Shown: piece after piece, positions 1,193-63,684 of the stretch
How the letters are laid out: each line of letters starts with the position of its first letter
How positions within the stretch are numbered: the stretch's first letter is position 1
Assembly: GCA_002335385.1 (NCBI GenBank)
Contig: DCVK01000071.1
Span: 13,330-77,329 of the forward strand
Direction of reading: 5' to 3'
DNA length: 64,000 bases
Source of the DNA: Candidatus Aminicenantes bacterium UBA2190
Lineage (GTDB): Bacteria; Acidobacteriota; Aminicenantia; UBA2199
The notes under the pieces: model-generated
What the model was told of the DNA's origin: nothing
Databases searched by the model: none
The model's input: the letters and a program-made list of their open reading frames with translations, nothing else
Position numbers and translations under genes: made by a program

Positions 1193-1216
1193 GGATATAC
1201 GGCATCCAGTTCAAGC

Positions 1217-1662
1217 CAGACGGCAGGGGGAAAAGTGTCAGTGTCAGTGACAGTGTCAGTGTCACTGTCAGCAGGAAAGGAAAGTAATCGGTTGACGGTA
1301 GACGGTTTACGGTTAACGGTCAGGATGGGTAATATTAAGACCTAAATCCCATTTCTTCGTTTGGGTCAATGTCCCAGCCAGGGGATTTGGCAATTTGAAT
1401 TTATTTGGGATTTGGAATTTGGTGCTTGGAATTTAATTCTTCACATGTCACGCGTCACGAAGATCGATTTCTTCTCTTTGTTTTGGACATTGGGTATTTG
1501 GAGCTTGGAATTTGTTTGGAATTTGGTGCTTGAGATTTGGAATTTAAGTCCTAATATTGCCTTTTTCTGACCCTCTACCGTAAACCGTCAACCGTACACC
1601 GAGTTCGCTCTGATGTTTTTTCCCTGCCGTCTACCGTCCGCCGTAAACCGTCAACCGTCCAC
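1217..1662. repeat. Mosaic intergenic element, copy A (6/7-nt periodic arrays plus AT-rich TTGGAAT-type core, nested inverted repeat)
   Basis: GTGTCA x6 at 1235-1270. NACGGTN heptamers at 1289-1321, with reverse-complement arrays at 1574-1600 and 1625-1662. Two direct AT-rich copies at 1354-1440 and 1470-1569. CACGCGT units at 1442-1460. Outer arms 1217-1350 and 1539-1662 are imperfect reverse complements. Confidence 0.85.
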
Positions 1663-1676
1663 CAAGCTCTTATAGT

Positions 1677-7865: not shown

Positions 7866-8510
7866 TCAGCGCTTGACTTTTTCCCAGTCCTTGAGGAAGC
7901 GCTCCATGCCGGAGGTGGTGAGGGGGTGGTTCAGGAGTTGCGCCAGGGTGGCGAAAGGAATGGTGGCCACGTGGGCGCCGATGCGCGCCGCTTCCACGAA
8001 GTGCAGCGGGTGGCGCACCGAGGCGACGATGATCTCGGTGGCGATCTCGTAGTTTTCGAAAATGAGGGCGATGTCCTCGACCAGGGCCATGCCGTCGCCG
8101 GAGATGTCGTCAACGCGGCCGACGAACGGCGACACGTAGGTCGCACCGGCCTTGGCGGCCAGCAGCGCCTGCGAGGGGGAGAATATCAGCGTGACGTTGG
8201 TCTTGATGCCGCGCCCGGAGAGGGCTTTGACCACCTGCAGCCCTTCCAGGTTGATCGGGACCTTGACGACCACATTGGCGGCAAGAGCGGCATAAGCTTC
8301 GGCCTGGGCGATCATCTCCTGCGGATGGCTGGCCGTCACCTCGACGGATACCGGCCCCGGGACCAGCGCGGCGATCTCCCGCACCAGGGGGATGAACTCC
8401 TTGCCCTCCTTGGCGACCAGGCTGGGGTTGGTGGTGACGCCGTCGATGACTCCGTACGCCAGGGCTTTCTTGATCTCAGTGATGCTGGCCGTGTCCAAGA
8501 ATATTTTCAT
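7866..8510 (-). CDS. tal: Transaldolase / fructose-6-phosphate aldolase (short type 3B family)
   Basis: [31 protein letters not shown]... is the classic family N-terminus. 214 aa counted from the ATG at 8510, which has a GGAG 7 nt upstream. The track's longer ORF (to 8573) adds 21 non-conserved residues. Confidence 0.9.
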
Positions 8511-8574
8511 GATGCTTCTCCATTCCTGAGCGGTTCCCATTATAACAAATTCACGGGAAAAAGTAACGAACAAT

Positions 8575-8970
8575 CGGAACGCGGAACACGTTATGCGTTA
8601 TGCGTGATGAGAAAGAACAAGAACTTTAAATTCGTGACGCGTAACGCGTGACGCGTGACATGTGAAGAATTAAATTCCAAATCCCAAGCACCAAATTCCA
8701 AATAAATATCAAATTCCAAATTCCAATTACCCAAACAAAGACACTCACAGGTTCTTCTCTTCGTTTGGGTCAAAGTCCCCGCCAGGGGATTTGGTAATTG
8801 GTGATTGGTATTTGTTTGTGATTTGGAGCTTGGGATTTGGAAATTAAGTCCCAATATTGCCTTTTTCTGCCTGTCAACCGTTCACCAATTACTTTCATTT
8901 CCTGCTGACACTATCACTAACACTGGACTCGTCTCTAATTCTTGCTGACGCTGTCACTGACACTTGCTGT
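8575..8970. repeat. Mosaic intergenic element, copy B
   Basis: Heptamer arrays at 8575-8607 (cgcggaa/cacgtta/tgcgtta/tgcgtga) and CGTGACG x4 at 8633-8660. AT-rich inverted arms at about 8663-8741 and 8757-8850. TGACAC-type hexamers at 8906-8929 and 8945-8968. Blocks 8758-8798 and 8836-8869 are near-identical to 1354-1394 and 1536-1569. Confidence 0.85.
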
Positions 8971-8975
8971 TCGTT

Positions 8976-11126
8976 CTATTTCTTTTTGGCCCTGCTGCTG
9001 CTCGAGCCGGAGGATGAAGAGGAGCTGGAGGCGCGGCTCGAACTCCCGGAAGAAGAGGAGCCGGAGCCATAGCTGCGGCTGGGGGAGGATGAGCGACTGC
9101 CGCCGGAGTAGGAACTCCCGGCATAGCTGCTCGCGGGGCGGCTGTAGGTGGAGGGGCGGCTCGACATGGCCTGCGGGCTCGAGCTGCCGCCCGTATCATC
9201 GCTGCGGGAGCGGTAAGCGCCGTCGCTGGAGCCGGGCCGCGAATAGCTGGAAGCGCCGGCGGAGGAGGGGATGCTGCCGATATACCTGCGGCCGGAATTG
9301 GCGGCCGCCTGGCTCCCCGTGTCCTCGCTGGAGGTGTATGCGGAGCCGCTGCCTGAAACGGTGCGGCTCCGATAACGGGCGACCGGGGCGGCGGCGCCGG
9401 CGGCATGGCCGGAATCGCCGCTCCCCGAATACGAGAGGTAGGACGGCTCTCCTTTTTTCTTTTTTCTGGCCGTGCCGCTGGAGCTGCCGGATGAGGAGGA
9501 TGAAGAGGAAGATGAGGAGGAAGATGAACTGCCGGAGCGGCTGCGGTAGCTGCCGCTGCTCGAGCTGCCGGTGCTGGAGGAGCTGCTGTCGCCCGAGTCA
9601 TCGGACCGGCTGCGGTAGCTGCCGGTGCGGGTCGAGCTGCCGGTGCCGGAAGAACCGCCGGAGCCGGATGTGTAGCGGGTGCGGCCGGATGACTCGTCGG
9701 CGGCGCGCGAACGGAACTCGGTGTCGTCCTTGACGGCCGGGCGGATCGTTTCCCGGCTGCCCGGGGCGGCGCTGTACCTGTAGACGGAATTGCGGATATC
9801 GGACCCCTGGGCGCGGTACTTTTCCGCGCTGACGACGGCGCCCTGCTTGTAGGTCACCGAGCGGCCCCTGGCGTTGATCACCGTGACCTTGTTCAGCTCC
9901 GGGCGCAGGGAGGGGGCCGAACCGCGGAAGGCGATGGTGCCGTCGTTGCCCTGGCCCGGCGTGGTCTTGTTCACGGCCACGCGGTGGATGTTGGCGGCCG
10001 ACAGCTCGTTCTTGCGGATAATGATGGTGGAGCGGGAATGGTGCGGGATGCCGCGGTGGTAATCATAATGGCGGTCCCAGTGGTTGTTGATGATGACCAC
10101 CGGCCGGTTCCACCAGCTCAGCGGGCTCCAGCCGTAGTAATGGTCATTCCAGAACCAGGAAACCCATGCCGGTGACCAGTGGTAGGAGGGAATCCAGTAC
10201 CAGCCGTTATTGTAGCTCCAGTGCCAGCGGCCATAGTGGTGGGTGAACCAGCCGCAGGTGTCGTACGAGGTCCAGACGTAGCCGTAATAGGGGTTCCACA
10301 CCCAGCGGCCATTGGCATACGGCCTCCAGTCGGCGCCGGCATGGTAGGGACGCCAGACATAGGAACTGTAATCGGACATGTAGATCCAGCGGCCGGCACG
10401 CGACATCTCGTACTCATAGTCTTCGTAGCCCCCCTGCAGGTAGCGGGAGGTGCCGTAGCGCGCGTAGCCCAGATCGCGGTTCTGTTCCTCGTTCCAGCGG
10501 TCGAAATCGTCCTTCTCCGAGGCGTAGAAATAAAAGGGCCGCTCGGCCATCTGGCCGCGCGCCATGACGATCTTCTGGTTCTCGCGGACATTGCGGCTGC
10601 TATCGCTGCCGGCCACCTCGGCGATGCCTTCCAGCACGACCACTTCCGTCTGCCCTTTAACGCCGGAGTTGACGCGGTACACTCCCTTGTCCAGGAGGAA
10701 AATGCCGCAGTCGGCGGTCTGGATCTCGATGCCCTTTTCGCTGTCCAGGTTCTCGATCTCCAGGTAGATGCTCCCCTCCTCCAGGCGCACGGCCAGGTCG
10801 GTGCGGCGCAACGCCGGCACCTTTTCCAGCACGACCACCGTGTCGGCGTCCAGGCGCAGGTAGTTCAGGCGGCCGAGGTATACGGCCAGTCGGCCGTCGG
10901 TGGTGCCCACGACGTCCTTCTCGAACAGAGGCAGGTTGACCGTGGCCTCCTCCATGCCCTCGTCATAGGATCGTTGGACGAAACCCTCGCCCTCCACGCT
11001 CTTGACGCGCACGACCTTGGCGTTGTCGTAATATTTGGCTTCGTTGGCGTTCGCTTCCAGGTCGTCGGACCAGCAGGCGCCCGACAACAGCAGCAGGCTC
11101 GCCAATGCGATTATTGTCTTTTTCAT
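8976..11126 (-). CDS. Secreted FecR-domain / Trp-Tyr-rich (DUF6600-like) protein with a roughly 250-aa Ser/Gly/Arg low-complexity tail
   Basis: Start ATG at 11126 with a GAGGAGG 5 nt upstream. Signal peptide MKKTIIALASLLLLSGA. FecR-like beta region, then a W/Y-rich segment (WYWIPSYHWSPAWVSWFWNDHYYGW), then a C-terminal tail of YRSRS...SSSS repeats ending RAKKK. Confidence 0.7.
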   Translation of the reverse strand: MKKTIIALASLLLLSGACWSDDLEANANEAKYYDNAKVVRVKSVEGEGFVQRSYDEGMEEATVNLPLFEKDVVGTTDGRLAVYLGRLNYLRLDADTVVVLEKVPALRRTDLAVRLEEGSIYLEIENLDSEKGIEIQTADCGIFLLDKGVYRVNSGVKGQTEVVVLEGIAEVAGSDSSRNVRENQKIVMARGQMAERPFYFYASEKDDFDRWNEEQNRDLGYARYGTSRYLQGGYEDYEYEMSRAGRWIYMSDYSSYVWRPYHAGADWRPYANGRWVWNPYYGYVWTSYDTCGWFTHHYGRWHWSYNNGWYWIPSYHWSPAWVSWFWNDHYYGWSPLSWWNRPVVIINNHWDRHYDYHRGIPHHSRSTIIIRKNELSAANIHRVAVNKTTPGQGNDGTIAFRGSAPSLRPELNKVTVINARGRSVTYKQGAVVSAEKYRAQGSDIRNSVYRYSAAPGSRETIRPAVKDDTEFRSRAADESSGRTRYTSGSGGSSGTGSSTRTGSYRSRSDDSGDSSSSSTGSSSSGSYRSRSGSSSSSSSSSSSSSSGSSSGTARKKKKGEPSYLSYSGSGDSGHAAGAAAPVARYRSRTVSGSGSAYTSSEDTGSQAAANSGRRYIGSIPSSAGASSYSRPGSSDGAYRSRSDDTGGSSSPQAMSSRPSTYSRPASSYAGSSYSGGSRSSSPSRSYGSGSSSSGSSSRASSSSSSSGSSSSRAKKK

Positions 11127-11223
11127 TTTGGCCTCCTCGCTGAAAAGAAAGCAATTCATATGCCAAATCCCGGCAAGGGAAACTGTCCTGTTTTCGTGAC
11201 AAAGAAGCGGGAAAAGGCTGATA

Positions 11224-20680: not shown

Positions 20681-21085
20681 TTAAAGCCCCTTCAGCAATT
20701 CCATTTGGACGTTCAGAGGCCGGGCCAGGGTTTGGAAATGATTGTCCAGGGTAAGCACGGTCAGGCCGTGCGCCTTGGCCAGGGCGGCGATGAGCAGGTC
20801 GGAGAGGGGCATGTTGAACCCTTTTTTGCGCATGGAGGCCCCCATTTTCCCCGCCATCGCGAATATGTCACGGGTTGCTTCCAGGAAGGGCAATCCGAGG
20901 AAGGATTCTTCAAGAAAATCCTGATCCTTTTCATTGTGAATCCCGGTCAACAACTCCGCCAATATGATCCCCGAAACAACGGCACGGTTCTCGTCGAGAA
21001 GCTTTTCCAGCCGTTTTTTTATTGCCGTTTTTTCCCCGCGCAGGAATTCAACCCAGACCGAGGTGTCGACCAGGTATTCACTCAC
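20681..21085 (-). CDS. vapC: Type II toxin VapC (PIN-domain ribonuclease)
   Basis: YLVDTSVWVEFLRG is a PIN N-terminus. The GTG start at 21085 overlaps the vapB stop (GTGAGTGA). 134 aa. Confidence 0.85.
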   Translation of the reverse strand: MSEYLVDTSVWVEFLRGEKTAIKKRLEKLLDENRAVVSGIILAELLTGIHNEKDQDFLEESFLGLPFLEATRDIFAMAGKMGASMRKKGFNMPLSDLLIAALAKAHGLTVLTLDNHFQTLARPLNVQMELLKGL

Positions 21086-21293
21086 CCAGTTCTCTCCGCC
21101 GGAGTTCCCGCACGTCCACATCGACGGCGATCTTACCCCAAGCTCCCTTCAGCTTCTGCCGCCGCAGCCGGTCCAGCATCTCGCGCAGGGCTTTGTCGAT
21201 GATCTCCGTCTTGCTCTTCACCCCGGACAGCCGCGCGATCTCGCGCAGCTTGTCCTCGGCGATGTTGAGCGTGGTCCTCATCTGCATCTCCAA
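21078..21293 (-). CDS. vapB: Type II antitoxin VapB
   Basis: MRTTLNIAEDKLREI... is a typical VapB N-terminus, so the start may be the ATG at 21281 rather than 21293. Overlaps vapC by 8 nt. Confidence 0.8.
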   Translation of the reverse strand: MEMQMRTTLNIAEDKLREIARLSGVKSKTEIIDKALREMLDRLRRQKLKGAWGKIAVDVDVRELRRRELGE

Positions 21294-21413: not shown

Positions 21414-21451
21414 ATTAAAAAGAAAGGGCAGGCACGGGGGCCTGCCCCTAC
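21414..21451 (-). terminator. REP-like GTAG hairpin (copy 1) followed by a T-rich tract; candidate intrinsic terminator of the aor operon
   Basis: The minus strand reads GTAG-GGGCAGGC-CCCCGT-GCCTGCCC and then TTTCTTTTTAA. This is an 8-bp GC stem with a 6-nt loop, about 108 nt downstream of the aor stop. Confidence 0.5.
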
Positions 21452-21475
21452 AAAACGCCTTAAACTGATTTCTTT

Positions 21476-21546
21476 GCCGTCGGCCGTAAACCGTCCGCCG
21501 TCAGCCGAGCCATTTAACGTCGAACAGCGAACGTCGAACAAAGAAC
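21476..21546. repeat. Two adjacent heptamer-periodic arrays (GCCGTNN x5, then AACGTCG-type x4)
   Basis: gccgtcg/gccgtaa/accgtcc/gccgtca/gccgagc at 21476-21510. aacgtcg/aacagcg/aacgtcg/aacaaag at 21516-21543. Confidence 0.7.
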
Positions 21547-21558
21547 CTCGGTCTTGCC

Positions 21559-26496: not shown

Positions 26497-27423
26497 TCAA
26501 TTCCCGTCCCAGCCGGCCAGTCGCGCCAGGAGCCACCACATGGCGCGGCCTTTGAGCACGCAGTTCAAGTTCTGCGAATGGGCGCATTCGGGGCAGTCGG
26601 CGGCCAGGCGGGCCAATTCGCTCCCCGGGTTGGCCGCGATCCAGTCCGCGGCCCAGTTGCGGTCGCGGGAGCCGTTGCCGTCGCTGTCGTAGTCGCAGTT
26701 GTCGTCGGCCATGCGTTCCATGTAATTGGCGTCGCCTCCCGGGGCGAAACTTTCGATGTCGGCGAAGTCGAAGAGGAATTTGCCGTTGGCGCGGCAAAAG
26801 GCGCGGATCTGTTCATTGCGGCGGTGCAGGTTGCCGTTGGCGCCGCCGCCGTCGAGATGGCCGGTCATATAGACGAATTGCACGCCCGGGTAGTCTCTCT
26901 CCAGGCCGTCCATGGCGTTGAGATAGGTGCCGATGCCGCCTTCGCTGCAGTCGCTCACCCCGCCGCACCAGGACCAGATGACCACGTTGCGGTCGTTGCC
27001 GGGACGGGAAAGCATCTCGACGGTGGCCGACCGCCAGCCCAGGTCGCCGTCATAGCCGAGATCGTCGGCACCGCCTTCGTTGCCCCAGTAGTCGTTGAGG
27101 AACACCCCCGCCTGCAGCCCCCAGTCGGAATAGGTGAAATAAAAAGCGGAGCCGCTGCCGCCGCGAAAGGCCATCATGCCGCTGACCGGCTGGCTGCCGT
27201 GGGAGGTGTGGCCGTAGCCGATGCGCAGGCGGCTGCGCGCCTGCTCGATCCAGGTGGCCGGGATCTTGGCGCTATCGGTGCAGAGGTGGTCGATGACCCT
27301 GGACGCGGCCGGGAGCGGATCCGGATCCGGATCCTCCGCCGGCGGATCGTCCCGGGGCGCCGGGCTGCAGCCCGACAGCATGGCCAGGGCCAGAAGAGCG
27401 AGAACCCACCGTGCAGGATTCAT
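26497..27423 (-). CDS. Lipoprotein, hypothetical (family not recognised)
   Basis: Lipobox LALAMLSGC. ATG at 27423 follows GGAGG. 308 aa with a conserved-looking HTSHGSQ and WSWCGG. I cannot name the family. Confidence 0.6.
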   Translation of the reverse strand: MNPARWVLALLALAMLSGCSPAPRDDPPAEDPDPDPLPAASRVIDHLCTDSAKIPATWIEQARSRLRIGYGHTSHGSQPVSGMMAFRGGSGSAFYFTYSDWGLQAGVFLNDYWGNEGGADDLGYDGDLGWRSATVEMLSRPGNDRNVVIWSWCGGVSDCSEGGIGTYLNAMDGLERDYPGVQFVYMTGHLDGGGANGNLHRRNEQIRAFCRANGKFLFDFADIESFAPGGDANYMERMADDNCDYDSDGNGSRDRNWAADWIAANPGSELARLAADCPECAHSQNLNCVLKGRAMWWLLARLAGWDGN

Positions 27424-27498
27424 GTCAACCTCCGAACGATTTTTCCTCTATTAGATATGGCGGAACGGCCGTTCATCTCATGAACCCAACGGGGAAAC

Positions 27499-27612
27499 AG
27501 TGAAAAGTGAAAAGTGAATAGTGAAAAGTGAATAGTTAAAAGAAGCCGCATTGCAGCGAACCATTGCTTTCATGTCATTGCTGTTTTACTTCTTATTTTT
27601 CACTTTTCACCC
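27499..27612. repeat. AGTGAAA heptamer array with an inverted partner (long hairpin) in a divergent promoter region
   Basis: agtgaaa x7 with variants at 27499-27545. CATTGC recurs at 27549, 27562 and 27576. The inverted partner cttcttatttttcacttttcaccc lies at 27589-27612. Confidence 0.75.
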
Positions 27613-27680
27613 GGGTCCTTCTATTTCAACTTCGCGCCTCCATGTTTACTATAGCCCGGAGTTCAACTATAATGGCCCCG

Positions 27681-28310
27681 ATGAGAATATTCACGGGCAT
27701 CGCTCTGGATGACGAGGTCAGAAGGAACGTCCTCAAGGAATTGCAGCCGTTCCAGAAGGCGGGCATTCCCATGCGCTGGACCGACGAGCGCAACATCCAC
27801 CTGACCTTGAAATTCATCGGCGAGGTGGCCGAGGCCGAGGCCGCGCGCGTGGGCGCGGTCCTGGAGGCGCTGCCCCCCGCTTCTTCCTTCCGCCTGCGCC
27901 TGCGCGGTTTCGGCAAGTTCCCCGCCGGGAACGGGTTGCACGTCCTCTGGGCCGGGGTGGAGGAGAGCCTGGAACTGCGGGCCCTGTTCGCCGTTGTCGA
28001 GGATGCCCTGGCGGCGCTGGGTATCCCCCGCGATACCCGTCCTTTCCATCCCCACGTCACCCTCGGCCGCAGTACGGACTCCCGGTCCGGCCGGCCCGGG
28101 ACGTCGGGGCTCCAGCGGCCCCTCCAGCCGTCGGTGCGGGGCCGTACGGCCGGTCAAGAATCCAATGGCGTCATGCCGCTGTTGCGGGAGAAGGGCGACC
28201 TCTTCCTCGGCGAATGGGAAGCGGCCGCCCATCGGCTTTATTCCAGCCGCCTGACCCCCGCTGGCCCTTCCTATACCGTTCTAAAGGAGATCCCCCTTGT
28301 CGAGTCATGA
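27681..28310 (+). CDS. thpR: RNA 2',3'-cyclic phosphodiesterase (2'-5' RNA ligase family, ThpR/LigT)
   Basis: MRIFTGIAL..., with two HxTx motifs (HLTLKF and HVTLGR). The start could alternatively be the ATG at 27672. Confidence 0.8.
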   Translation: MRIFTGIALDDEVRRNVLKELQPFQKAGIPMRWTDERNIHLTLKFIGEVAEAEAARVGAVLEALPPASSFRLRLRGFGKFPAGNGLHVLWAGVEESLELRALFAVVEDALAALGIPRDTRPFHPHVTLGRSTDSRSGRPGTSGLQRPLQPSVRGRTAGQESNGVMPLLREKGDLFLGEWEAAAHRLYSSRLTPAGPSYTVLKEIPLVES

Positions 28311-35658: not shown

Positions 35659-35663
35659 AAGAA

Positions 35664-36012
35664 ACCGGTTGACGGTAGACGGTGTACGGTCATAACAGCA
35701 ATACGAAGACTAAAATACCAAATCCAAAATTCCAAATAACAAACAATATCCAAATTCCAAATTCCAATTTCCAAAACGAAAGCTCCTTGCAAAGGATTCT
35801 CTTTGTTTTGGTCATTGGGTAATTGGAATTTGGAATTTATTTGGAAATTGGTGCTTGGGATTTGGAATTTAAGTCCTATTAATTCCTTATTCTTCCACCT
35901 TACGCCCTGCGACTTCCGCTTTATGCCTTATGCCGAGTTCTGTTCTTCCTCGTTACGCGTCACGAATAGCGTCTTGTTTTCTTTCGCATAACGCCTGACG
36001 CATAACGAAACT
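35664..36012. repeat. Mosaic intergenic element, copy C
   Basis: NACGGTN heptamers at 35667-35690. AT-rich inverted arms at about 35708-35782 and 35801-35876 around an apex TCCTT-GCA-AAGGA (35784-35796). CCTTATG-type heptamers at 35898-35935. cgttacgcgtcacg and cgcataa/cgcctga/cgcataa arrays at 35951-36008. Confidence 0.85.
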
Positions 36013-36032
36013 CGTTGTTTATTCTTTCCTTG

Positions 36033-50386: not shown

Positions 50387-50522
50387 GATCGTCCAGGTTC
50401 CGGGAATGCCGGCACGGCGATTAATTTTCAATTTATGGTGCTCAAACGGCACGGCTGCGGGTTTAAGAGTTATCATGCTTGTGATAGAATTGCCAAACAT
50501 GTCGGCCATAAGGGGAACGCTC

Positions 50523-51635
50523 ATGAAAAGGATCGGCAACCGGCGGTTTTTGCTTTCACTGGTTCTGGTGTTCAGCTTGTTTCTCATGCCGGCCTGCCGG
50601 CCGGAGGAGGTCATCCCGACACCCGAGCCGGGGCCGAAAGCCGCGCGCGAAACGGTTGTATTCGTCGCCGGCTGGGGCGATACGGATGATGAAAGCTTCG
50701 CCGGCTATTGGCAGGATGGCCAATGGAAGGGTCTGAGCGCATGCAGCGACCCCGGGGAAAGGCCCTGGCGTTATGCCAATGCCATTTCCGTTTCCGGGGA
50801 CGATGTCTATGTCGGCGGATACAACGGCTGCGATTCTAAACTCGTGGCCTGTTATTGGAAAAACGGGGCGCGGACCGACCTGGCGCATCCCGCGGCCGAC
50901 AGCCATGCCAGATCCATGTGCGTTTCCGGGGACGACGTCTATATCGCCGGCTGGCTCGATTTCGGCGACTACACGATCCCCTGCTACTGGACGAACGGGG
51001 TGTGCACCGAGTTGAGCCGCCTGGGCCCGAGCAGGGTCGACCAGGCGGAGGCGATCGTCCTTGCCGACGGGGACGTTTATGTCGCCGGGACCGTCAACAG
51101 GAACCCCGACGCGAGCCAGATGATCTCCTCCCCCTGTTATTGGAAGAACGGCGAGCGGGTCGACCTGAAGGCCTACGATACCCTGAACCTCGGGTTCGGC
51201 AACTCGATCTGCGTGGCACAGGGCAAAGTCTATGTCGCCGGACATGTCGCGTATGGCTGCAGCTCGATGCCCTGCTACTGGGTCGACGGCGTCCGCTACG
51301 ATTTGAAAAAGGACGTCCCCGGCTGGGCGAACTCCATCCAGGTTTCGGGGACGGACATCTATATCGCCGGCATGGTGCAAACGGGGGAGGGCGAGAGCTA
51401 CAAGACGACGCCCTGCGTGTGGAAGAACAAGGCGCGCACCGACCTGGACGTGGCCGATAGCGGCTCCGCGTGGTCCATCTTTGTCCTGGACCAGAACGTG
51501 TTCGTCGCCGGATTCGGCAACAGCGGTTCTTATTACCATACCCCCTGCTACTGGAAGAACGGCGTGCGCACCGACCTCGTGCCGGGGGGCTATCCCGGAG
51601 GTTGCGCCCATTCCGTCTTCGCGACATACAAATAG
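50523..51635 (+). CDS. Lipoprotein with about seven tandem ~48-aa repeats (probable beta-propeller)
   Basis: ATG at 50523. Lipobox FLMPAC. The recurring unit is ...(S/C)(I/V)xVSGxDVY(V/I)AG...PCYW(K/T)NGxRTDL... Confidence 0.65.
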   Translation: MKRIGNRRFLLSLVLVFSLFLMPACRPEEVIPTPEPGPKAARETVVFVAGWGDTDDESFAGYWQDGQWKGLSACSDPGERPWRYANAISVSGDDVYVGGYNGCDSKLVACYWKNGARTDLAHPAADSHARSMCVSGDDVYIAGWLDFGDYTIPCYWTNGVCTELSRLGPSRVDQAEAIVLADGDVYVAGTVNRNPDASQMISSPCYWKNGERVDLKAYDTLNLGFGNSICVAQGKVYVAGHVAYGCSSMPCYWVDGVRYDLKKDVPGWANSIQVSGTDIYIAGMVQTGEGESYKTTPCVWKNKARTDLDVADSGSAWSIFVLDQNVFVAGFGNSGSYYHTPCYWKNGVRTDLVPGGYPGGCAHSVFATYK

Positions 51636-63559: not shown

Positions 63560-63627
63560 CTCGGTATACGGTAGACGGCAAGAACGGAAACAAACTATCG
63601 GGACAAGTGACGAGTGACGAGTGACGC
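63560..63627. repeat. Heptamer-periodic arrays (NACGGNA x4, then GTGACGA x3)
   Basis: ctcggta/tacggta/gacggca/agaacgg at 63560-63587. gtgacga/gtgacga/gtgacgc at 63607-63627. Confidence 0.7.
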
Positions 63628-63684
63628 GGAAGAAGAGCATCGCGGGGCTTGCCTTTCCTTCCCGATGTAGTAAGGCAAAAATCT

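Follow-up and report, generated by a model that had tools for sequence, protein, structure and literature searches.

The spacer between tal and a DUF6600 gene in a 64,000-nucleotide (nt) stretch of Candidatus Aminicenantes bacterium UBA2190 (contig DCVK01000071.1, positions 13,330 to 77,329; hereafter, the window) is occupied by an element, copy B, that belongs to a repeat that is multi-copy, modular and non-coding. Between close relatives, the modules of this repeat undergo exchange, inversion, nesting and loss, and its copies mark both rearrangement breakpoints and breaks in assemblies. On balance, and with somewhat more confidence than doubt, we interpret it as a lineage-restricted family of recombining mosaic repeats, similar in kind to bacterial interspersed mosaic elements (BIMEs) and pneumococcal BOX elements and possibly acting as transcriptional punctuation.

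Copy B and its counterparts in the window

The window is ordinary chromosome (EF-G, PurL, an SdhA/FrdA-type flavoprotein, tal, TamB and BamA are encoded in it) and contains three copies of the element, A (1193-1676), B (8576-8975) and C (35659-36032), the third of which was missing from the preliminary description. The near-identical blocks reported there between copies A and B were recovered: 8758-8799 matched 1354-1395 with 3 mismatches in 42 nt and 8836-8869 matched 1536-1569 with 2 mismatches in 34 nt, the number expected from 100 dinucleotide-preserving shuffles being 0 in each case. The left arm of copy B was the reverse complement of a copy-A segment, as proposed (8647-8724 against 1382-1459, 78 nt, 83% complementary), and its right flank was the inverted left flank of copy A (8873-8925 against 1251-1303, 53 nt, 83%), with hexamers, gcaggaaaggaaagtaat and ACGGT heptamers in the order given; the counterpart GTGTCA arrays of copy A lie at 1234-1271. 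The two AT-rich arms of copy B were also complementary, 8667-8732 pairing with 8785-8850 (66 nt, 79%).

A blastn comparison among the three window spacers agreed with the inverted-repeat search, and reverse-complemented copy B was collinear with copy C over 8886-8667 and then 8648-8589. Copy B thus reads as a full-length member in reverse orientation, and its direct-orientation matches to other copies are due to the palindromic core. To a large extent, what looks like shuffling reflects the orientation of the whole element together with palindromy. Of the proposal that modules are shuffled and inverted between copies, the re-assortment stands (elsewhere in the family as loop flip-flop, module swaps and loop cassettes), whereas much of the inversion between copy B and the other copies is that of the whole element.

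It must be considered that arms built of simple heptads inflate self-similarity, so that the likeness might be the chance resemblance of low-complexity AT-rich spacers that form no true family. We give this explanation practically no credence, since the 34-42-nt blocks had 0 chance matches, a 70-nt arm consensus was 80-100% conserved in 34 copies from six species, and the non-repetitive linkers and loops were shared as well. The core scan, the arm profile, the block shuffles and the arm consensus all refuted it. In addition, copy B was identical in six independent metagenome contigs and is therefore no assembly artefact; the exact tal protein occurs on metagenome contigs only (oil-sands tailings and others).

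With respect to gene context, tal (7866-8510, minus strand) was placed correctly, and the neighbour on the other side (8976-11159, minus strand), taken initially for a FecR-like gene, matched only DUF6600 in Pfam, with no FecR match even at E ≤ 10, and is not demonstrably FecR-like. The C-terminal part of this protein (8976-9700, minus strand) is of low complexity, rich in Ser, Gly and Arg, coded by imperfect 9-72-nt tandem repeats (e.g., 9533-9665), and reaches the element.

Modular organization of the element

The architecture of the element was derived from the three window copies and 31 related loci (loci here and below are designated L and a number), which are 8-kb stretches around matches to its core and hence selected for containing it; the window and these loci, 287 kb in all, are the scope of the family counts below. 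Each element is a composite of 350-480 nt that fills essentially the whole intergenic gap. A central AT-rich hairpin of ~190 nt, with arms made of TTGGAAT heptad runs, is flanked by short arrays of 6-8-nt units (ACGGTNN, GCGTSAC, CGTTATG, CCTTRCG and GTGWCA). From the alpha to the beta end, the order is GTGWCA/GTGRTA hexamer arrays, the linker GCAGGAAATGAAAGTAAT, ACGGTNN heptamers, CAGAAAA..GCAATA, an ATTCCAA-heptad arm, the loop, a TTGGAAT-heptad arm with the end GATTTGGAATTTAAGTCCTA, CCTTRCG, GTCACGC or GTTACGC, and CATAACG heptamers. Two hairpin subfamilies are distinguished by loop and arm ends, subfamily I having the loop CGAAAGCTCCTTGCA (e.g., copy C) and subfamily II the loop CAAAGACACT..CAGGTTCTTCTC (e.g., copy B). 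The parts of copy B are listed below; where no program is named, they were read directly from the sequence.

8539-8547, minus strand: extended −10 promoter of tal (TGTTATAAT; conserved TGnTATAAT), outside the element and marking its proximal limit
8576-8609, plus strand: outer beta-side arrays, CGGAACR twice and then CGTTATG/CGTGATG three times (8589-8609)
8610-8632, plus strand: linker agaaagaacaagaactttaaatt, also found after CGTGATG arrays in L122 and L030
8633-8666, plus strand: CGTGACG/CGTAACG heptamer array, 3.9 copies, and junction to the arm (Tandem Repeats Finder, TRF; period 7, 90% matches)
8667-8741, minus strand: hairpin arm 1 (beta-side), ATTCCAA/CCAAAT heptads (nhmmer match 8667-8755, E = 1e-17)
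8742-8757, no strand: loop of the subfamily II type, ..gacactcacaggttct.., typed II+
8758-8853, plus strand: hairpin arm 2 (alpha-side), TTGGAAT heptads (nhmmer match 8749-8858, E = 3e-18)
8773-8789, plus strand: 17-nt GC mini-hairpin AAGTCCCCGCCAGGGGA within arm 2, missing in the otherwise ~90% identical copy of L030
8854-8904, plus strand: inverted alpha end with atattgcctttttctg, ACCGT units (8873-8886) and the linker aattactttcatttcctgc, reverse complement of A 1251-1351
8905-8966, plus strand: TGACAC/TATCAC/TAACAC hexamers in two arrays (8905-8925 and 8946-8966) separated by a 20-nt linker

The outer beta-side arrays of copy B, of which 8589-8609 was scored by TRF as 3.0 copies of period 7, match the reverse complement of copy C at 35949-36007 (81%), and the array at 8633-8666 was also picked up by a period-7 array detector. 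The core motif GATTTGGAAATTAAGTCCCA closes arm 2 (8834-8853), the loop is found in the opposite orientation in L013, L027 and L030, and the order of the alpha end is repeated in L013, L014, L019, L027 and L030. The hexamer arrays stop 9 nt short of the TAG stop codon of the DUF6600 gene (8976-8978, minus strand). The GC mini-hairpin, AAGTCCCCGYCAGGGGA, was restricted to arm interiors in the window and the loci; it was rejected as an independent tiny mobile repeat given this sole location, and is therefore an arm-subtype indel. The whole spacer has a G+C content of 42%, in a window of ~65%, and a predicted fold of -129 kcal/mol (z = -6.4 against shuffles). It also shows a 7-nt periodicity, a base being equal to that 7 nt further on with a frequency of 0.43, compared with 0.30 at lags of 5, 6, 8 and 9; the overall range was 0.42-0.50 at lag 7 and 0.28-0.30 at other lags.

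The other two copies in the window were as follows.

1193-1676, plus strand: copy A, with two direct arms at 1346-1439 and 1467-1558 (nhmmer arm profile, repeat search)
35659-36032, plus strand: copy C, a full subfamily-I element read alpha to beta (repeat search, nhmmer arm profile)

Copy A lies between the convergent DUF5916 and BamA/Omp85 genes. Since both of its arms are direct, it is without an arm-arm hairpin, and it looks like two half-elements joined at their beta ends; pairing occurs instead between its outer ACGGT arrays (1289-1322) and the ACCGT arrays at 1567-1602, and there is an additional ACCGT array at 1627-1663. Copy C, between the convergent TPM and aspartate kinase genes, has ACGGT arrays (35666-35690), arms at 35708-35790 and 35790-35883, and then CCTTACG, GTTACGC and CATAACG arrays.

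Some ~70 nt of the arm were 80-100% conserved in the 34 copies mentioned above, which represent six species. The inner arms are inverted, and the outer ends are unlike (alpha and beta) in most copies, being mirrored only in A, L022 and L120. These ends are not fixed: the type and number of arrays vary, and the arrays reach or enter the flanking stop codons. Elements are also nested within one another's loops. Given that indels of 7 nt, of 17 nt and of entire modules occur among copies, no open reading frame (ORF) is conserved and the element is non-coding.

Read inwards, every 7-nt unit of the arrays has one TGA, TAA or TAG, and the 150-nt flanks of 28 hairpins contained 456 stop trinucleotides in the inward direction and 260 in the outward one. 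In several loci the stop codon of the adjoining gene is provided by the array. Inward stops would reduce the harm done by an element that lands at a gene end, which we mention as a lead only. A mirror rule with TRAC on the left and GTYA on the right was weak (65 to 51 and 47 to 60) and was discarded.

Size and host range of the family

A 20-nt core pattern matched 31 loci among 185,579 species genomes (one genome per species), where ~4 matches would be expected by chance over the whole collection at equal base frequencies. All 31 loci were in five metagenome-assembled genomes (MAGs), namely UBA2199, UBA6072, MFD04716, MFD01872 and SRP192927_co7_47 (SRP below). Four of them are labelled Aminicenantes and SRP is labelled 'uncultured Clostridia'. 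This last label looks wrong, and the MAG groups with the other four, its DNA being ~91-92% identical to that of Aminicenantes UBA6072 and its aspartate kinase 84% identical to that of the window. An nhmmer profile of the arm gave 81 matches, corresponding to ~46 elements, 33 of them with both arms; all ~46 are intergenic, and the same modules recur in conserved order. The arm profile had no match in 370 kb of sequence around tal in other bacteria. The core pattern was absent from the viral contigs of IMG/VR and copy B had no blastn match among the plasmids of PLSDB, and a phage or plasmid origin was accordingly rejected. To judge from these searches, the family is confined to one clade of uncultured Aminicenantes (Acidobacteriota). 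Literature searches on Aminicenantes repeats returned nothing relevant, and the family is apparently undescribed.

Period-7 arrays, more frequent than those of periods 5, 6, 8 and 9, reached a density per 100 kb of 9.4 in the window, 0.6 in distant relatives and 56 in the family loci, the last figure being that of loci selected by their core. Of 27 convergent spacers 10 contained an element, compared with 19 of the 71 tandem and 5 of the 25 divergent ones. A strict placement at 3' ends was rejected, as the three kinds of spacer contained elements and no bias was exclusive.

Arrays also occur on their own. An unannotated gene (26497-27423, minus strand) and a divergent LigT-like 2'-5' RNA ligase gene (27564-28310, plus strand) have in their promoter spacer seven GAAAAGT/GAATAGT heptamers (27493-27542), with no hairpin arms near. 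Another divergent spacer has a GACAAGT/GACGAGT array (63598-63631), whose unit type is that of the arrays found in L009 (2958-3140) in place of a full element. At 21424-21550, solitary GCCGTNN and AACGTCG heptamer arrays (21476-21550) separate the stop codon of the gene for an aldehyde:ferredoxin oxidoreductase (21559, minus strand) from a canonical terminator (21449-21424, minus strand) that is the only strong one of the window; therefore, arrays and an ordinary terminator can share one 3' untranslated region (UTR).

Turnover at orthologous sites

The opinion that copy B is not drifted spacer DNA was upheld by the ~46 family members in a single clade and by orthologous spacers, which range from empty (3 nt) to canonical terminators and other module sets. 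The suggested comparison of related genomes revealed insertion polymorphism at the tal site, at site C (the position of copy C), between L017 and L032, and between L009 and L022. In the five loci closest in tal (70-88% identity of the protein), where tal-tamB synteny is maintained, the spacer upstream measures ~100-300 nt and is element-free, and in L041 a canonical terminator occupies the position of copy B. The TGnTATAAT extended −10 is retained in all five, and it stands at an equal distance from the tal ATG in the element-free loci L038-L042. The gene upstream of tal differs among the relatives, and therefore this spot is also a synteny breakpoint. No orthologous flanks were found by tblastn of the window proteins against L007-L037.

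At site C, the order LemA, TPM, TPM and then the convergent aspartate kinase gene is kept wherever both sides are covered. The spacer contained the following.

Window, 374 nt: element of subfamily I
L118, 360 nt: hairpin of subfamily II and hexamer arrays
L119, 157 nt: ACGGT arrays and a single arm, truncated at the loop
L122, at least 82 nt: contig break within CGTGATG arrays
L120, 304 nt: unrelated DNA enclosed by perfect inverted ACGGCNN arrays, without arms
L124, 3 nt: empty
L125, 45 nt: empty
L121, 111 nt: two hairpin terminators, GC-rich and canonical

In the aspartate kinase tree the occupied loci formed one clade and the empty loci its sister; therefore, one ancient gain followed by remodelling in place suffices for this site. 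In L120 (3869-4172), the left and right ACGGCNN arrays are perfectly inverted, variable dinucleotides included, and flank ~200 nt of unrelated DNA; such mirrored arrays may represent a layer of the system that is older or independent.

Comparison of the close relatives UBA6072, UBA2199 and SRP (~92% identical) showed that some elements are nearly unchanged and others are remodelled. The alpha half was replaced exactly at the loop between L009 (4565-5008) and L022 (3553-3900), and another spacer of these two loci has GTGACNA arrays in one species and the full element in the other. Between L017 and L032, a full hairpin in UBA6072 corresponds to arrays only in UBA2199. Furthermore, a ~115-nt loop cassette ([GTGTCA]-GCAAGAGCC..-[CTTCAACG]) is present in one species and missing in another, array copy number varies between orthologous elements, and a ~0.8-kb DUF937 gene between two elements is inverted in SRP (L019) relative to UBA6072 (L030). 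Both orientations of the loop relative to the flanks were found, 7 against 5 in subfamily I and 5 against 2 in subfamily II, which reads as the flip-flop signature of arm-arm recombination. Copy B itself is ~90% identical over ~330 nt to an element of UBA6072 (L030, 7605-7918) located between unrelated genes.

Some copies lie at contig ends or beside duplicated genes. In SRP (L122, 2869-2950), the contig ends 82 nt beyond the aspartate kinase stop codon, in CGTGATG arrays, and in UBA2199 the loci L010 and L032 diverge after ~230 nt of identity. The repeats appear to fragment MAG assemblies and, therefore, copy numbers from MAGs are probably underestimates. Two tandem paralogous metallophosphatase genes (~76% identical DNA) are each followed by an element in L023 (2775-5379) and L025 (2435-5045), which suggests the segmental duplication of a gene-plus-element unit.

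Given these features, a MITE (a miniature transposable element with inverted repeats), that is, a non-autonomous cut-and-paste transposon mobilised in trans with the inverted arms or the mirrored subterminal arrays as transposase-binding ends, has to be weighed. The element is indeed small, non-coding, AT-rich, hairpin-forming and multi-copy, orthologous sites show presence and absence, near-identical copies lie in unrelated gene contexts, and copies nest in one another's loops, as do pneumococcal BOX, RUP and SPRITE elements (PMC10969869). However, the suggested search for target-site duplications gave none where filled and empty sites could be compared, there being no direct repeats at the boundaries of copy C against the empty sites L124 and L125. 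In addition, the outer ends vary in array type and number up to or into the flanking stop codons, the differences between orthologous sites are replacements instead of clean insertions, and the at least eight array types would demand different binding proteins. With respect to a mobilising protein, no recurrent transposase-like protein was found among the 226 proteins predicted in the 287 kb, in which the only recurrent element-associated proteins were ordinary paralogues (GGDEF-FHA, histidine kinases and a metallophosphatase); the arm pairs enclose no more than 230 nt. The lack of target-site duplications, the unfixed ends and the lack of a recurrent transposase-like protein make cut-and-paste transposition less likely, and we consider the MITE explanation unlikely. 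Thus, of the MITE/BIME-like label given initially, the part that describes a BIME-like recombining mosaic is maintained and the MITE part is not, since neither a target-site duplication nor defined outer termini nor a transposase was found.

In the recombining mosaic that we favour, copying and remodelling would be DNA-level events, through recombination between dispersed copies and inside the inverted arms of each one. Spread and remodelling would occur via ectopic homologous recombination or gene conversion among copies, and template switching or inverted-arm recombination may contribute further. In the comparisons, half an element had been exchanged at the loop, or a whole cassette substituted; other modules had entered the loop, or the loop had turned round relative to its flanks (flip-flop); and arrays had expanded or contracted, and a gene lying between two copies had been inverted.

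Sequence constraint and possible function

Divergence was measured in orthologous alignments between three sibling species, with the following results.

Arms within long alignments: 12/427 (2.8%)
Eight matched arm pairs: 25/593 (4.2%)
Third codon positions: 913/7253 (12.6%)
Codon positions 1 and 2: 618/14,514 (4.3%)
Other intergenic DNA: 448/3564 (12.6%)

Retained arms therefore evolved three times more slowly than third codon positions (4.2% against 12.6%, Fisher p = 2e-11), in a sample of eight arm pairs that is small and biased towards arms that can still be aligned. Orthologous copies share locus-specific variants and paralogues are only ~80% alike, and recent homogenisation therefore fails to explain the slow rate. 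Selfish transposition of a MITE would leave it unexplained as well. Because retained arms are constrained, the host probably uses them.

The most likely host use, although we hold this less firmly than the mosaic itself, would be the punctuation of transcription units. A large hairpin with U-rich shoulders would stop or insulate transcription and protect 3' ends between adjacent transcription units, and it counts in favour of this role that canonical intrinsic terminators occupy the same spots in element-free relatives (L041, L121).

Several observations weigh against the favoured interpretation. No enzyme or mechanism for copying to new sites was identified. The putative termination role would be dispensable at some sites, such as the 3-nt spacer of L124, and elements are also found in divergent promoter spacers (5/25, against 10/27 for convergent ones). 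The hairpin does not have the GC stem and U-tract of an intrinsic terminator, and terminator-like sites in the window occurred at chance level; within copy B, the terminator scan gave only a weak local hairpin at 8830-8854 (plus strand), of a kind found at chance frequency, and the sigma-70 promoter scan likewise gave nothing above chance. The constraint estimate has the limits of sample indicated above. It must be noted, too, that complementarity between the two arms of one hairpin (73%) was lower than the likeness of arms across copies (80%), and that, with RNAalifold on 13 hairpins, only one of 33 pairs was compensatory and the covariation term was unfavourable. Arm conservation is at the level of sequence, and selection for pairing is not demonstrated. 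Conserved RNA structure was consequently rejected as the cause of the conservation, given the 73% against 80% and the lack of covariation.

These same data bear on the possibility that the element is a structured small RNA or a multi-copy small RNA gene. The predicted folds are very stable (z = -6.4 to -6.7), and the tail of copy A has a weak outward promoter-like site (TTGAGA-16-TAATAT, 1530-1557). Nevertheless, covariation is absent (RNAalifold), the element occurs in both orientations relative to its flanking genes, module-level indels are frequent, and Rfam gave no match, either at the gathering score in the whole window or at E ≤ 1, apart from one chance-level match in 8400-9100; a tRNA/tmRNA scan found none. 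A small RNA is thus very improbable.

Conservation in sequence instead of structure speaks for a host cis-acting platform, in which an oligomeric protein that binds DNA or RNA, or a nucleoid-associated protein, would recognise the heptad arms and the arrays in a 7-nt register, the repeats would serve regulation or chromosome organisation, and mobility would be secondary. In this regard, conserved cores of 4-5 nt recur at an exact 7-nt spacing with variable filler (ACGGT+NN, TTGG+N3), period 7 is dominant over 5, 6, 8 and 9, and solitary arrays are found in 3' UTRs and promoter regions. The geometry would resemble that of HutP, which binds UAG-N4 repeats. However, many of the array types are unrelated, the sites are dispensable in close relatives, and no candidate protein was identified; we regard this platform as rather improbable. 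A bolder synthesis, about which we are equally doubtful, would join it to the punctuation role: heptad arms and mirrored arrays, as a lineage-wide cis code in a 7-nt register read by a putative oligomeric protein, would have been domesticated for factor-assisted bidirectional termination or insulation and would largely have replaced intrinsic terminators in this clade, while still spreading and re-assorting in the manner of selfish DNA.

Other features of the window

A VapBC toxin-antitoxin pair is encoded at 20681-21281 (minus strand; VapB 21078-21281, PIN-domain VapC 20681-21121), and its region has a perfect TTGACA-18-TATAAT promoter at 21328-21299. Five tandem repeats of ~130-150 nt (50773-51577), coding for ~45 amino acids with a Cys-Tyr-Trp-Lys-Asn-Gly motif, lie within an ORF (50406-51635) that had no Pfam match.

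Relation to known repeats and significance

We class the family with the interspersed mosaic intergenic repeats. BIMEs are extragenic mosaics of a few motifs in alternating orientation (PMC2817692). Like these composites of repetitive extragenic palindromic (REP/PU) sequences in Enterobacteria and Pseudomonas, the present elements are extragenic and multi-copy, with a small motif vocabulary in alternating or mirror orientation; BIMEs are often located at 3' ends or between convergent genes, with termination, mRNA stabilisation and protein binding as candidate roles (PMC2817692). In contrast, the units here are AT-rich heptad arms of 75-95 nt and arrays of 6-8 nt, not GC-rich palindromes of 20-40 nt with a GTAG/CGTC head, the sequence is not similar, the host is of a different phylum, and no RAYT was found among the 226 proteins.

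Pneumococcal BOX (boxA-boxB(n)-boxC), RUP and SPRITE elements are likewise modular, with variable unit number and stable structure, and are nested or clustered, a terminator-like role having been proposed for SPRITE (PMC10969869). Their sequence is unrelated, and BOX modules are of 45-60 nt and lack a long arm-loop-arm core with flip-flop isomers. REPINs are similar in having two inverted repeats that form a hairpin and in being non-autonomous, long-lived genomic sequence populations (PMC3337134; PMC3116915). Unlike the present elements, REPINs are ~100 nt long, consist of two REPs of ~25 nt and rely on a single-copy, REPIN-flanked RAYT gene; here the arms are three to four times longer and heptad-built, and no RAYT gene was seen in the window and the 31 loci. 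Correia/CREE, ERIC/IRU and the Rickettsia RPE are also intergenic elements of 100-300 nt with long hairpins that can affect transcript ends (PMC10969869; PMC3184786). They differ in having defined terminal inverted repeats and, in Correia, a TA target duplication, neither of which was found here.

Tandem heptanucleotide repeats in intergenic DNA, detected here by TRF as period-7 arrays, are in common with the short tandemly repeated repetitive (STRR) sequences of cyanobacteria. These were reportedly described by Mazel et al. in 1990 as heptanucleotide tandem arrays of several types, intergenic, restricted to one lineage and of unknown function. Compared with the STRR consensus of heterocystous cyanobacteria, the heptamers are different (ACGGTNN, GCGTSAC, CGTTATG, TTGGAAT), and the host is Aminicenantes. 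The arrays are, moreover, mirror-paired around a conserved hairpin, with a conserved unit core and variable filler. In behaviour, the family is closest to E. coli BIMEs and to pneumococcal BOX, RUP and SPRITE. It differs from REP/BIME in having no GTAG- or CGTC-headed GC palindrome, from MITEs in that neither a target-site duplication nor defined terminal inverted repeats were found, and from STRR in sequence and host.

Work on interspersed mosaic repeats is, to our knowledge, almost confined to Proteobacteria, Firmicutes and cyanobacteria. The family would extend them to a candidate phylum known from metagenomes only, and with an unusual architecture of 6-8-nt periodic units mirror-imaged around a long hairpin. 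In practical terms, such repeats break MAG assemblies, sit at rearrangement breakpoints and offer a clade-specific marker. In addition, the heptad arrays are a second independent case, beside cyanobacterial STRRs, in which the origin of heptanucleotide arrays can be addressed. Finally, the slow evolution of the retained copies raises the question of whether a selfish repeat has been recruited as a general boundary of transcription units.

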